Notes: generated from the sequence alone by a model not told the origin. A DNA stretch of 64,000 bases from Escherichia coli (GCF_050920415.1 NZ_CP169310.1); one strand, 5' to 3'. Shown: positions 38,027 through 55,522, counted from the stretch's first letter. A program made the numbers and translations.

Positions 38027-38308
38027 TTAGCGCAAATCTGCGATCTGATAGACTTCGCTGCTTTCTCTTCTTCCAACGGCAATAACGAGTAAAACGACTT
38101 TCTCATCAATGACTTGATATACAAGTCTGTAGCCAGATGAACGAAGTTTGATTTTATAACGATCAGCATGACCATGTAATCGGGCTGCAGGTACACGTGG
38201 ATTTTCCAGCCGTTCTGACAGTTTCTTTTTGAATTGTTCACGGATGGTGTGGCCGAGTTTCTGCCATTCCTTCAGTGCTCTGCGGTCAAAAGCCAGTTCA
38301 TAGGTCAT
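38027..38308 (-). CDS. relE: RelE/StbE-family toxin
   Basis: 93 aa; overlaps antitoxin gene by 11 bp. Confidence 0.75.
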   Translation of the reverse strand: MTYELAFDRRALKEWQKLGHTIREQFKKKLSERLENPRVPAARLHGHADRYKIKLRSSGYRLVYQVIDEKVVLLVIAVGRRESSEVYQIADLR

Positions 38309-38549
38309 CCAGGCTAACCTTCACAATTTCCGGTTTTTTCATGCGCTCATCAGCAACAGCGTTTAACTCAGCATCTTCAGCGAGTTCTCGATAGTAGGCG
38401 TAAAGTTTTGGTGGAACGCAATAGAACGCCGGTTCGTTTCGGTTCAGGATCGCAACAGCGTCCCCTTCACCTTCAGCTACGGTTCCCATAGGATTTTTTT
38501 TTAGGTCAGTAATACTGGCCGCTGTGGTTGTCAGGATTTGATAACTCAT
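38298..38549 (-). CDS. relB: RelB/StbD (Phd/YefM-type) antitoxin
   Basis: 83 aa upstream of relE. Confidence 0.75.
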   Translation of the reverse strand: MSYQILTTTAASITDLKKNPMGTVAEGEGDAVAILNRNEPAFYCVPPKLYAYYRELAEDAELNAVADERMKKPEIVKVSLDDL

Positions 38550-38609
38550 AAGCCCTGTATGAACGCCTCCCCGTTTGCAAGGCTTCCGTTGTCTGACATC
38601 GACGAGTAG

Positions 38610-39927
38610 TTGCAGCTCTGTATCCGGCCTTATTGCAGCCAGAGCTGCGGGCCACTATGAGATTCGCTGACCTGAGCCTTATTCTCCGTGCGGACTTGAT
38701 GTCCATGGGCCTATTCAGGTTTATCAGGTCACGGTCTTACCTGTCGTTGTCATCACATCGGCCGCCATAGCAACCTTTCAGCATTCACCCTTTTTAAGGT
38801 TTGATGTTTATCAGTCTCAGCAATTAATATGGTCTGATACTGACGTGATTCTTGTCGTATTTACGTCCGTGAGCAGCTATTGCCCACACTGTTCGTGCCA
38901 GCTTGTTTGCCATGGCGACGATTGCCACACTGGCCGGACGACGTTTTTTCAGTTCGGTTATCCACGGGCCTGGTTCTCTGGTCAGTAATGCTGCCGCCCT
39001 TGCTCCGTGGATAAACAATGTCCGGAGGTAGGGATCACCACGTTTACTTATCCCCAGCAGGCGGATTTTTCCTCCTGAGCCAGTCTGTCTGGGCACCAGA
39101 CCAACATAAGCCGCGAACTCTCGCCCTGATTTAAATGCAGATGCTTCCCCCATGGTGACCACCTCTGCCGTCGCAATAAGTGGTCCAATGCAGGGAATAT
39201 CCAGCAACCGTCTACAGGTCTCATTCTGCCTGGCCACACTGGTAAGCTGTTTTTCGATATCATCTATCAGTGAGTCCATCTCACTCAGTCTGTTGTACTG
39301 GTCTTCCAGCACCGTAATGAGATACGGTGGAAGTCTCTCTTTCATCCGCTCCAGTGCTTCAGGGAACTCCCGCTCCATCGCTGCCCGACCTTTGTGAATG
39401 CTTTCACCAAACTCCAGTAACGTCCCGTGCAGGGCATTAATTTGTGCGGTCCGGAACTTCACCAGTTGCCTGCGGGTCCGGTGCAGAACAAGAACTGACT
39501 GCTGTTCTTCTGTTTTGACGGCGATTTCTTTACCTGGCTGCTGAACTGCCATCCAGATAGCCCTGGCATCCATCACATCATTCTTATTGCCCATGACAAA
39601 TGCCTTAACGAAGCGGGCCTGCAACAATCGGACTTTATGACCCAGTTTTGTCAGTTCCCGGGCCCAGTGCTGAGAGCCTCCACAGGCTTTCATGCCAATC
39701 AGGCAAGGTTCGCGGTTACTAAAGAACGTCAGAAAATCTCTGCTGCGTAGTTGCTTATCCACCACTTCACCTGTGTGCTCATTGATGAAGTGAACCTGAA
39801 TCAGATGTTTTGCGATATCAACGCCAACCGGTGTATATTTTATTTGTTGAGTCTCCAGTCTGAGGGAGTCTTATGCATCCCGTATTGGACTATGATGCCG
39901 CAAATCTGCGAAGCTCCACACCTTCCT
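38610..39927 (-). mobile_element. IS110-family element copy B; transposase 38824-39843 with canonical ATG replaced by ATA
   Basis: protein colinear with split transposase of copy A; copy A start reads ATGAAATATACACC, here ATAAAATATACACC. Confidence 0.6.
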
Positions 39928-40346
39928 GTATTTTCCCGCTATCTACCTTTGTGCTACGGATTTAATGGTGGGAGGCGTTCATCTCATTCTCCGTTTGTCT
40001 TATTGTCATAATAGCATCTTTAAAAGCACTCTTAAAAGTGCTTGCATTGAAAAAAACATCAGAACAGGTGAGATATATCTCTTTCCGACATCGCCTTAAA
40101 ACACTTTGAATCACGTTCTGAACATTTTCTCCATTTCGTTGCAATCAGTCCTGGCTTAACGGCTGTTAACGCCGTTCAACGCTTTTTAACGGCCTTGTTG
40201 CTGTGATCTGCTGTCATGATCCAGATAGCAGTTCAATCTTGATCAAAACTTCCGCGAGGCAACAATTGTTTTGTGAATACCCTCTAAAACGTGCAGTATC
40301 GCATTCTAAGCGATTTTTTCCATTTCACATGTTTTCCTCATGGTTA

Positions 40347-41552
40347 TGTAAATAGACCCGTTTTAGTTCCATGCATTTTTTGAGAACCCGGCCAAATAAT
40401 GGTGAAGTCGGTATTCCTCCGGTGTCATATTGTTCAGTGATTCATGCGGGCGTTCATAGTTATATTCTGATAACCATTTCTCCGTAATTTCCTGTACTTC
40501 ATTCAGCGTTCTGAACAGATAAAAATCGAGTATTTCTGTACGGTATGTCCTGTTAAAACGCTCAATGAAAGCGTTCTGCGTCGGCTTACCCGGCTGGATG
40601 AACTCCATTTTTACTGCGTGTATCTCTGCCCATTCAGCCAGCGCCAGAGAGATAAATTCCGGACCATTATCCATGCGTAGCATGACCGGATAACCGCGGT
40701 TTGCCGCGATCCTGTCAAGTACACGGACCACTCGCAGAGCTGACAGATTCAGATCGATTTCAATCGATAACGCCTCACGATTAAAGTCATCAACGACATT
40801 GAACGTGCGAAAACGACGGCCACAGGCCAGCGCATCATGCATAAAATCGACAGACCAGCTCTGGTTCAGCGCTTCTGGCGTAGCCAGTGGCGAGGGATTA
40901 CGCACCGGAAACCGTTGTTTGCCTTTACGGCGAAAATTCAGCTTCAGCAGACAATAAATACGATGGATCCTGTTGTGATTCCACGGGTATCCTTGCCGTC
41001 GCAGAATCTGGAAAAGCTTCGGAAAGCCGTATCGTGGGTATCGCTCAGCCGCAGCCTGCAGGGCGGCAATAACGGGTTCATCACGCGTGGTATCCGGGCG
41101 GTAATGGTAAACCGTTCTGCTCAGGTTCAGACTCCGGCAGGCCTGACGGATACTGAGTCCGAATGTCGTTATTAGATGAGTGACCAGCTCACGCTTAAAG
41201 GCTGGTTTTAAAGCTTTTTTCGATAACGTCTTTCAGCGCCCGTTTTTCCAGACTCAGGTCAGCAAACATCTGTTTGAGACGGCGGTTCTCGTCCTCAAGA
41301 TCCTTTATTTTTTTAATATCAGAAGCTTCCATGCCGCCGTATCTGGACTTCCAGTTGTAGTAGGTGGCTTCAGAGATACCGGCCTCCCGGCAGACATCTT
41401 TAACGGTTCGTCCGGCTTCAACTGACTTAATCACAGCGATGATCTGATGCTCAGTAAAACGGGCTTTACGCATAGCGATCTCCTTCGTTAGCAGATTGAT
41501 TATGCCGGATGATCTCTAAATATGAATGGCACGATTATGCGGGATACTTACA
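40347..41552 (-). mobile_element. IS3-family element (orfA 41195-41473; orfB 40363 to ~41195 in two frames)
   Basis: OrfA MRKARFTEHQIIAVIKSVEAGRTVKDVCREAGISEATYYNWK...; OrfB region ...PGKPTQNAFIERFNRTYR...; ends TGTAAGTATCCC / TGTAAATAGACCC. Confidence 0.6.
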
Positions 41553-54730: not shown

Positions 54731-54897
54731 TACGTTCAGCGGTGATTTTCGTTATTTCATCGTAGTTCATTTTATCCCCCTACAAGGCGCCGCTTTACCC
54801 GTTCAATTTCAGCCAGCGTTGCGGTGTCAGCTCCAGTGTAGTCCGGCGGCATGACGATTTGGGCTGCATACTCGCCTCAATCCTTAAGTACCAACAA

Positions 54898-54931
54898 CAT
54901 TATAGGGGGGCCAGACGGCCCCCCTATAATG
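54898..54931 (-). terminator. GC-rich perfect hairpin (cattatagggggg-ccagacgg-cccccctataatg) just downstream of higA
   Basis: 13-bp arms; followed on minus strand by U-rich stretch. Confidence 0.45.
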
Positions 54932-54935
54932 GATG

Positions 54936-55229
54936 TCAGGCATGGTGAAATAATGGGCGAATGTTTGGGCGAGCGGTTTGCGAAGCAACCCAAAGCTCAT
55001 ACTGAGATTGCATACCAGTCCACATTTCGGCGCTAGTTCCGAGTGCGGATTCCAGGCGGAGCGCCATATCCGCAGAGATACCAGCTTTTTCATTCAGAAT
55101 CCGGGAAAGCGCCGTGCGAGTAATGCCTAATGCGGTGGCAGCGTCTGTGACTGACATTTCTCCCAGATATTCACGAAGAACCGCGCCTGGGTGCGCGGGA
55201 TTATGCATACGATTCATAGTTTCCCTCAA
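54936..55229 (-). CDS. higA: HigA-type XRE-family HTH antitoxin
   Basis: 97 aa; HTH TDAATALGITRTALSRILNEKAGIS. Confidence 0.7.
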   Translation of the reverse strand: MRETMNRMHNPAHPGAVLREYLGEMSVTDAATALGITRTALSRILNEKAGISADMALRLESALGTSAEMWTGMQSQYELWVASQTARPNIRPLFHHA

Positions 55230-55522
55230 TGATAATCCTGATAGTCAACCAGAATTGCGTCTTCACCTTCAAATCGGAAGGTAAGTCGCCAGTTACCGTT
55301 TACAGATATAGCCCAATGGCCTTTAAGATCAGCTCCCTTCAGAGGGTGTAATTTCCAGCCTGGTGCAGACATATCGTCTGGGCGTTTAGCCATATTAAGG
55401 GCGGTTAATTGAATGCGTAGCTTAACCGCATGTTTGGCCTGAATGCCTGCGGTTGAACCTGTCTTGAAAAAGTGTTCAAGCCCTTTATGGCGAAATGACT
55501 TAATCAAAATAATTTCATCCAT
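55226..55522 (-). CDS. higB: HigB-type (RelE/ParE superfamily) toxin
   Basis: MDEIILIKSFRHKGLEHFF...; overlaps higA start by 4 bp. Confidence 0.7.
   Translation of the reverse strand: MDEIILIKSFRHKGLEHFFKTGSTAGIQAKHAVKLRIQLTALNMAKRPDDMSAPGWKLHPLKGADLKGHWAISVNGNWRLTFRFEGEDAILVDYQDYH

Follow-up and report, generated by a model that had tools for sequence, protein, structure and literature searches.

We analysed a 64,000-nucleotide stretch of Escherichia coli DNA (GCF_050920415.1 NZ_CP169310.1), hereafter the window, in which three toxin-antitoxin (TA) cassettes, stbDE, pemIK and higBA, are located between positions 38,027 and 55,522. All three are type II TA pairs, located on the minus strand at the coordinates that the initial annotation had given, and all six open reading frames (ORFs) are intact in the window. 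Protein families were assigned by profile searches against curated cut-offs (Pfam, TIGR/NCBIfam), which placed five of the six proteins above their thresholds; the antitoxin at 38298-38549 fell below the Phd/YefM cut-off. The identity of the six genes as TA components is already known at the annotation level, since RefSeq annotates them as such on plasmid pCFSAN004181P (RelE family toxin and Phd/YefM antitoxin, pemI and pemK-mt, RelE/ParE toxin and HigA antitoxin) and since hundreds of public contigs carry the exact sequences of all six proteins with TA names; 'PemK-mt' is a RefSeq product name only. Catalytic residues are kept in all three toxins. The ratio of non-synonymous to synonymous substitution rates (dN/dS) against the nearest outside relatives was 0.057 for pemK, 0.094 for stbE, 0.143 for stbD, 0.044 for higB and 0.061 for higA, and purifying selection has acted on the cassettes in the past.

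The stbE toxin gene (relE-like, 93 aa) is located at 38027-38308 and overlaps by 11 bp with the stbD antitoxin gene (83 aa, 38298-38549), which RefSeq assigns to the Phd/YefM family. StbE scored 54.4 bits against the ParE_toxin profile and 39.9 bits against TIGR02385 (RelE_StbE, cut-off 27.9), and it gave an ungapped alignment with RelE of E. coli K-12 (PDB 4V7K/4FXE, E=9e-36), keeping K52, K54, R61, R81 and Y87, which we take from RelE-ribosome structures to be the RelE catalytic residues. StbD scored 16.8 bits against the Phd/YefM profile (cut-off 29.8), with weak DnaT-N and YafN matches as well, and its C-terminal 27 aa are weakly RelB-like (E=0.07-0.3). The profile search of StbD returned no ribbon-helix-helix or RelB match, so it is not a classical relBE antitoxin, and by its sequence it is an antitoxin of the StbD type rather than the RelB type. 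Its N-terminal ~60 residues also resemble the N-terminus of DnaT (NCBIfam E=1.5e-7, PDB 9ZBU E=4e-4), a match stronger than the one to the Pfam model of Phd/YefM. In DNA sequence, the cassette is 95-96% identical to an stbDE-type pair found on about 900 plasmids, many of them small and IncX1-type; StbE and StbD each differ by 2 aa from the IncX1 copy, in which the antitoxin is named 'plasmid stabilization protein'. A StbDE pair with an 11-bp overlap and a GGAGG ribosome-binding site (RBS) has been experimentally proven to be a toxin and antitoxin on the IncI2 plasmid p45 (PMC11878559).

Comparison with the IncX1 plasmid NZ_LR882060.1 showed that the homology of stbDE is split into two parts, window 37836-38556 and 39989-40345: positions 1055-1778 of segment L008 of that plasmid correspond to window 38556-37836, and positions 699-1056 to window 40345-39989. 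The two parts are separated by a 1.43-kb insertion sequence (IS) of the IS1111 group (IS110 family, ISEc11-related), located at 38556-39988 (±2 bp) on the minus strand and recognized from the split IncX1 homology and its likeness to ISEc11. The IS was inserted 7 bp before the stbD ATG, inside the native GGAGGG RBS and in the same orientation as stbDE, and the IS-stbD junction is common to all nine lineage plasmids in PLSDB. The native stbDE upstream region, 87.5% identical to the stbD upstream region of NZ_LR882060.1, is now found 1.43 kb away at 39989-40345 (minus strand), rather than directly before the antitoxin gene. It carries a promoter-like TTAAGA-16-(TG)TATTAT at 40035-40008 on the minus strand, pointing into the IS, and a 20-bp near-palindrome at 40024-40043. 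Consensus promoter scans recovered this displaced promoter and found nothing convincing directly upstream of stbD, pemI and higB, with counts at the level of shuffled sequence. Between 40035 and 38549, no terminator was predicted on the minus strand, and ISEc11 reportedly lacks a promoter of its own except one formed in the circular intermediate (PMC11187229), which together make it plausible that transcription from the displaced promoter reads through the IS into stbDE.

The pemI (kis) antitoxin gene (85 aa, 45275-45532) and the pemK (kid) toxin gene (110 aa, 44941-45273) are included in an R100-homologous cassette on the minus strand (44868-45822, 96.6% identity by local BLAST) that also contains the remnant of a CPBP/CAAX protease gene. 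Both proteins exceeded the cut-offs of their profiles, PemK with 102.3 bits against PemK_toxin PF02452 (cut-off 23.1) and PemI with 29.9 bits against MazE_antitoxin PF04014 (cut-off 24.7). PemK is identical to Kid of R1 (PDB 1M1F, E=8e-69) at 109 of 110 residues, the sole change being R67H, and it retains H17, R73 and D75, which we take to be the catalytic residues of Kid. PemI matches R100 PemI at 83 of 85 residues (R8K, Y47H), and its exact sequence was found on at least 1000 contigs. The region upstream of pemI equals that of R100 except for one base farther upstream, leaving promoter and operator intact; an 18-bp perfect palindrome, GTTATATTTAAATATAAC, at 45550-45567 overlaps the promoter and is the candidate parD operator.

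The start codon of pemK is a TTG at 45273-45271, one base past the pemI stop, as the initial annotation had read it, and the 1-nt spacing between the pemI stop and the pemK start is retained. We performed a census of this codon by megablast with a 35-mer centred on it, counting a match only when the same base was present there. Nine of 72,556 plasmids have the TTG, as do 17 of 5,426 E. coli genomes, every match being on plasmids, and the nine PLSDB plasmids with it all belong to the pCFSAN004181P family. The canonical ATG, by comparison, was found in 3,816 plasmids including R100, so that TTG accounts for nine of about 3,825 plasmids with pemK. The pemK allele is private to this lineage, with the next best match being 96.7% identical. 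Relative to R100, pemK carries 12 synonymous and 2 non-synonymous changes, one of the latter being the start codon itself; the resulting low dN/dS points to purifying selection on the toxin for most of its divergence, and, with regard to the idea that the TTG pemK is a fresh pseudogene, the 12 synonymous against 2 non-synonymous changes argue against long-term decay. The TTG start should lower toxin synthesis. In E. coli, the codons AUG, GUG and UUG taken together support initiation at 10-100% of the AUG level (bioRxiv 10.1101/063800), and this range, together with the apparently native TTG start of higB described below, means that the TTG alone does not prove the toxin inactive.

Among the lineage sequences compared, the only further changes of pemK are R89G, carried by p1RM9088, and an insertion of an IS21-like element, carried by AP025742; no synonymous change was seen. 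In the latter (L005, NZ_AP025742.1 1519-1640, an 'Escherichia sp.' isolate), pemK is split after about codon 19 by the IS21-like ISEc62 and pemI is intact. The annotation of AP025752 (NZ_AP025752.1) shows pemI alone at the locus, and its pemK probably carries the same insertion. The toxin is intact in most lineage members. Damage to pemK next to an intact pemI, promoter and operator fits a recently attenuated or dispensable toxin, in a comparison of small numbers. Directly downstream of pemK, we observed frameshifted debris of a CopG/ribbon-helix-helix antitoxin-like gene (44540-44822, minus strand); part of it resembles the intact CopG of the CopG-RelE/ParE pair of the plasmid, and no partner toxin gene adjoins it.

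In higBA the gene order is inverted, the higB toxin gene (93 aa, 55226-55507 in RefSeq coordinates) preceding the higA antitoxin gene (93 aa, helix-turn-helix (HTH)-Xre type, 54936-55217). HigB scored 73 bits against HigB-like_toxin PF05015 (cut-off 27), and HigA 98.4 bits against TIGR02607 (cut-off 47.7) together with a match to HTH_3. The families of the higBA-like pair initially placed at 54936-55522 were thus upheld, but both starts are more likely to lie further downstream. As first called, the ORFs spanned 54936-55229 (higA) and 55226-55522 (higB), and the in-frame ATG at 55522 would give a 98-aa HigB. Most likely, however, higB starts at TTG 55507, because in the JS316 homologue, which is 90% identical, the ATG upstream of it is not in frame, and the N-terminus MIKSF of Rts1 HigB aligns from that residue. 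Similarly, higA most likely starts at ATG 55217 and not at TTG 55229, given the GAGGGAA Shine-Dalgarno sequence ahead of the ATG and the RefSeq annotation. HigB is about 45% identical to Rts1 HigB (PDB 4MCT, E=1e-22), with H54, KLHPLKG and the C-terminal D-Y-H conserved; H54, D90, Y91 and H92 are, we assume, the catalytic residues of Rts1 HigB. The best structural-sequence match of HigA was an XRE-family regulator solved with a 'putative killer protein' (PDB 6F8H/6F8S), presumably the GraTA pair. A candidate higBA promoter, TTGCAT-17-TAGTGT, was read from the sequence at 55536-55570 (minus strand), with a 10-bp palindrome, GTGTATACAC, at 55545-55536; the motif was missed by the consensus scan and is conserved in the JS316 homologue.

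The higBA unit spans ~54930-55577, and its upstream edge adjoins an IS21-family istB fragment. This variant is rare: of 5,426 complete E. coli genomes, 41 have it, for the most part on plasmids of ~90 kb, and nine of its locations are chromosomal. A phage origin was rejected, as its DNA had no match in 50,697 phage records. A hairpin with a 15-bp stem and a G6/C6 core (CATTATAGGGGGGCC...GGCCCCCCTATAATG) was observed directly after the higA stop at 54898-54931 (minus strand), just outside the region common to other higBA copies; it might serve as a terminator or mark where a neighbouring element ends.

The three modules had been described as unrelated, and this holds in part. BLASTP among StbE, HigB, PemK and the fourth RelE/ParE toxin of the plasmid gave no cross-match even at E<100, and the antitoxins belong to three families; StbE and HigB nevertheless both belong to the RelE/ParE superfamily. 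HigB matches TIGR02385 weakly (E=0.002), and the RefSeq labels for StbE and HigB are RelE family or RelE/ParE. Direct relatedness of the toxins by BLASTP was therefore rejected, and the kinship of StbE and HigB is one of profile and fold. The proximity of the three loci was likewise rejected as a signal: in simulations on a circle of 224 kb, a group of three loci within 17.5 kb arose with p=0.15 when there were 5 loci in all and with p=0.40 when there were 7.

The window belongs to a plasmid, as had been supposed. It is ~100% identical to pCFSAN004181P, a 224-kb plasmid typed as IncFIA/FIB by MOB-suite, and a gene for a RepB initiator is present at the window start. The 20.5 kb around the cassettes are ~100% identical to pCFSAN004181P, pCFSAN004180P and relatives, with a net length difference of 3 bp between the window and pCFSAN004181P (NZ_CP012499.1) somewhere in 38550-44940. 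Plasmids of this family are ~214-242 kb in size and carry ehxA and the enterotoxin gene sta1. Their hosts are Shiga toxin-producing E. coli without the locus of enterocyte effacement, of serotypes O168:H8, O136:H16 and O36:H14 (PMC5009963), and the family was also found in 'Escherichia sp.' isolates from Japan. The supposition that the plasmid carries multiple addiction-type loci was borne out as well, since vapBC, a CopG-RelE/ParE pair and two hok loci were found beyond the three cassettes, along with a truncated yacB and the decayed CopG gene.

The region between 36 and 57 kb consists for the most part of IS copies and pseudogenes, and all three cassettes lie among IS fragments. Each cassette is evidently a second-hand fragment of ~0.6-1.1 kb from another replicon, stranded in the accessory half of the plasmid; the source of stbDE is an IncX1-type backbone and that of pemIK an IncFII/R100-type one. 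Of the sister plasmids, p1RM9088 is the most divergent; it is reduced to 167 kb and retains both stbDE with its IS and pemIK. StbD and PemI have the same RefSeq protein accessions in p1RM9088 and pCFSAN004181P.

To better understand the insertion in the stbD leader, we compared the IS with its relatives. Its transposase coding sequence (38824-39843, minus strand) is annotated by RefSeq as an intact IS110 family transposase, and the element is 86.6% identical to a copy of ISEc11, with subterminal inverted repeats ATGAACGCCTCCC. Alignment of its 3' non-coding region with those of ISEc11 and a Shigella pINV remnant showed that the differences among the three are concentrated in two short patches, which in the window are the two predicted seekRNA guide patches (38681-38714, minus strand), ATAGGCCCATG at 38714-38704 and CACGGAGAAT at 38690-38681. 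In ISEc11, the patches CAGTATTTT and GTGAAAAT each make up one half of the target published for that element, GTGAAAATACTG (PMC11187229). In the window, the reverse complement GGGCCTAT of the patch ATAGGCCC matches the stbD-leader flank GGGCTTAT, and the other patch, ACGGAG(AAT), matches the flank ACGGAG. Since the guide patches match both insertion flanks, the insertion looks seekRNA-guided and aimed at the stbD leader rather than random, and it looks like a natural re-programming of the seekRNA. As a side observation, an RNA-guided IS with guide patches fitting the leader of a TA operon is a small natural example of seekRNA re-targeting.

It is conceivable, though we hold it improbable, that this re-programmed insertion made the stbDE promoter, the IS with its transposase and seekRNA, and stbD-stbE into one read-through unit. 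If this were true, the IS would have gained an external promoter that is repressed by StbDE and de-repressed upon antitoxin degradation, as well as a site protected by addiction, and stbDE would depend for its expression on transcripts running across the IS.

Taken as a whole, the locus very probably contains three bona fide type II TA cassettes of well-studied families that act in the classical manner where they are expressed, two of them probably being attenuated in this lineage. StbE would act as a RelE-type ribosome-dependent mRNA endonuclease opposed by the Phd/YefM-like StbD, PemK as a MazF-type sequence-specific RNase opposed by the AbrB/MazE-type PemI, and HigB as a ribosome-dependent RNase of the RelE/ParE fold opposed by the HTH antitoxin HigA. 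In each case, a labile antitoxin would neutralize a stable toxin and repress the operon, and loss of the locus, in cells or in deletion derivatives, would release the toxin and lead to poisoning. The StbDE pair tested on p45 and the near-identity of PemK to Kid lend indirect support to such action. With stbDE off its promoter and its RBS split, expression of this pair would depend on read-through transcription; stbDE and pemIK are therefore the two cassettes regarded as probably attenuated. The analysis shows what the genes are, that they are intact with their catalytic residues kept, that they were under purifying selection in the past, and which lesions they carry; their present-day expression, and any contribution they make to plasmid maintenance, we infer.

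Several observations weigh against this interpretation, and against the initial suggestion that the plasmid relies on these addiction systems, which the present results do not support. The stbDE genes have no adjacent promoter, having been cut off from it by the IS, which also split their strong RBS. The changes in pemK within the lineage hint at relaxed constraint on the toxin. HigBA is absent from p1RM9088 in the 45 kb of syntenic sequence examined. Several partition systems are present on the plasmid, and these and the other TA loci could make the three cassettes redundant. The StbDE of p45, which is likened to the window pair by description only, was dispensable for vertical stability in experiments (PMC11878559).

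The same observations lend some weight to a different account, which we consider possible but clearly less likely, namely that the cassettes are selfish passengers or relics that arrived on fragments of other plasmids, that they are kept since loss of the antitoxin is counter-selected, and that they have no measurable role in maintenance while their toxins are slowly disarmed. All three cassettes are placed amid IS fragments and pseudogenes, with stbDE apart from its promoter; pemK has accumulated the TTG start, R67H, the R89G of p1RM9088 and the IS21-like insertion of a sister plasmid, and pemI is identical throughout; a decayed CopG antitoxin gene lies beside pemK, and a truncated yacB is found elsewhere. 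The missing higBA of p1RM9088 in the syntenic stretch and the dispensability of the p45 StbDE (PMC11878559) point the same way. However, none of the six ORFs of the window is disrupted, dN/dS against outside relatives is far under 1, the promoter and operator of pemIK are intact, and the native TTG of higB shows that such a start is compatible with a working toxin.

The invariance of the antitoxin genes in the lineage plasmids compared, next to a pemK that is attenuated or broken, would also be expected if StbD and PemI, with low output of their toxins, served to shield the host when co-resident IncX1/IncI2 and IncFII plasmids are lost or displaced. Other plasmid groups have nearly identical cassettes, and the ratio of toxin to antitoxin is reported to set the competitive strength of plasmid TAs, the p45 StbDE being a weak competitor because its antitoxin is in ~9-fold excess over its toxin (PMC11878559). 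The evidence for such anti-addiction is nevertheless circumstantial throughout, most lineage members have intact toxins, and stbD itself is without its strong RBS, so that we regard this role as unlikely.

A similarly low probability is given to the proposal that the cassettes act as local stabilizers, guarding the nearby cargo (the type VI secretion system (T6SS) island, uilS/pqaA and an S6-family serine protease autotransporter) from IS-mediated deletion. Many repeated IS copies flank the cargo in this region, the T6SS-stbDE-pemIK-uilS block has been kept in the 167-kb p1RM9088, and a position effect of TA loci has a precedent on Shigella pINV (PMC5629016, PMC8923223). On the other hand, the cargo on the higBA side is absent from the examined part of p1RM9088, and the three loci are not significantly clustered.

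Although certain type II TAs abort phage infection, it is very doubtful that these cassettes are abortive-infection modules rather than addiction systems, as none of the six proteins matched the PADLOC-DB defence models, the higBA DNA had no match in phage records, and the closest characterized relatives are plasmid-stability systems.

The importance of the locus beyond correct annotation is small, and several TA cassettes are common on large virulence and resistance plasmids. Only two points are mildly unusual, the rare TTG start of pemK and the ISEc11-like IS with guide patches matching its site in the stbD leader. With one cassette off its promoter and the toxin start of another weakened, a count of TA loci overstates the functional addiction capacity here.

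Several other features were observed in the surroundings. A T6SS cluster at ~7700-33400 (tssA, B, C, F, G, H, J, K and M, VgrG and PAAR) is interrupted by IS3, IS110 and IS630 copies, and near it lies an AvrPphF-family type III effector gene (~6835-7431). Between the TA cassettes and bordered by IS fragments are two cargo genes, one encoding a UilS-family quorum-quenching N-acyl-homoserine lactonase (46192-47052) and the other a PhoPQ-activated gene of the pqaA family (about 48570-50060). Scanning the entire window against Rfam gave no TA-related RNA, the sole matches being the Hfq-binding small RNA isrN and an ALIL pseudoknot, both in or beside IS3-family elements; the isrN match was strong (155 bits) and located at 41067-41209 on the plus strand, inside the span of an IS3-family transposase on the opposite strand.

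Each cassette was compared with its closest known systems. The window pemIK shares with parD (kis-kid) of R1, the same system as pemIK of R100, its gene order, 1-nt gap, 18-bp operator palindrome and promoter region, with the PemK of the window agreeing with Kid at 109/110 positions including H17, R73 and D75, and its PemI with that of R100 at 83/85. It differs in the TTG start of pemK in place of ATG, in R67H of PemK and in R8K and Y47H of PemI. Its pemK allele is ~3.3% diverged, mostly at synonymous sites, and private to the lineage, and the cassette lies outside the IncFII replicon context of R100, with the upstream CPBP gene truncated.

The window stbDE shares with the IncX1 pair of NZ_LR882060.1 a 93-aa toxin and an 83-aa antitoxin, with two residues different in each, as well as the 11-bp overlap and the GGAGG RBS of the native leader, whereas its operon is split from the promoter by the 1.43-kb IS. 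Presumably, the prototype of stbDE is that of the IncX plasmid R485. The StbDE of the IncI2 plasmid pHNSHP45, likened by description only, has the 11-bp overlap and the GGAGG RBS in common with it. K-12 relBE shares the toxin, with an ungapped RelE match (E=9e-36) and all catalytic residues kept, but not the antitoxin: StbD is not a RelB ribbon-helix-helix protein, having a Phd/YefM- or DnaT-N-like N-terminus and a RelB-like C-terminal tail only. HigBA of Rts1 (Proteus vulgaris) shares the toxin-first order, the toxin size, the N-terminal MIKSF, H54 and D-Y-H, and an HTH-Xre HigA, although identity is only about 45% for HigB and the match of HigA is a distant one (E about 1e-8).

The IS in the stbD leader resembles ISEc11 and the IS1111 family in its subterminal inverted repeats, its 3' non-coding region, a TTGCAA -35 box close to the right end, and its two 3' non-coding guide patches matching the halves of the insertion site (PMC11187229); it differs in being 86.6% identical and in carrying ACGGAG and the reverse complement of GGGCCTAT instead of patches for the target GTGAAAATACTG. 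At the level of the whole plasmid, the closest parallel drawn here is Shigella pINV with CcdAB, GmvAT and VapBC. Its TA families are different, save for the vapBC found elsewhere on the window's plasmid, and two of the three cassettes analysed here have damaged expression signals. Both are large, IS-rich, IncF-type virulence plasmids that carry several unrelated TA loci in addition to partition systems.

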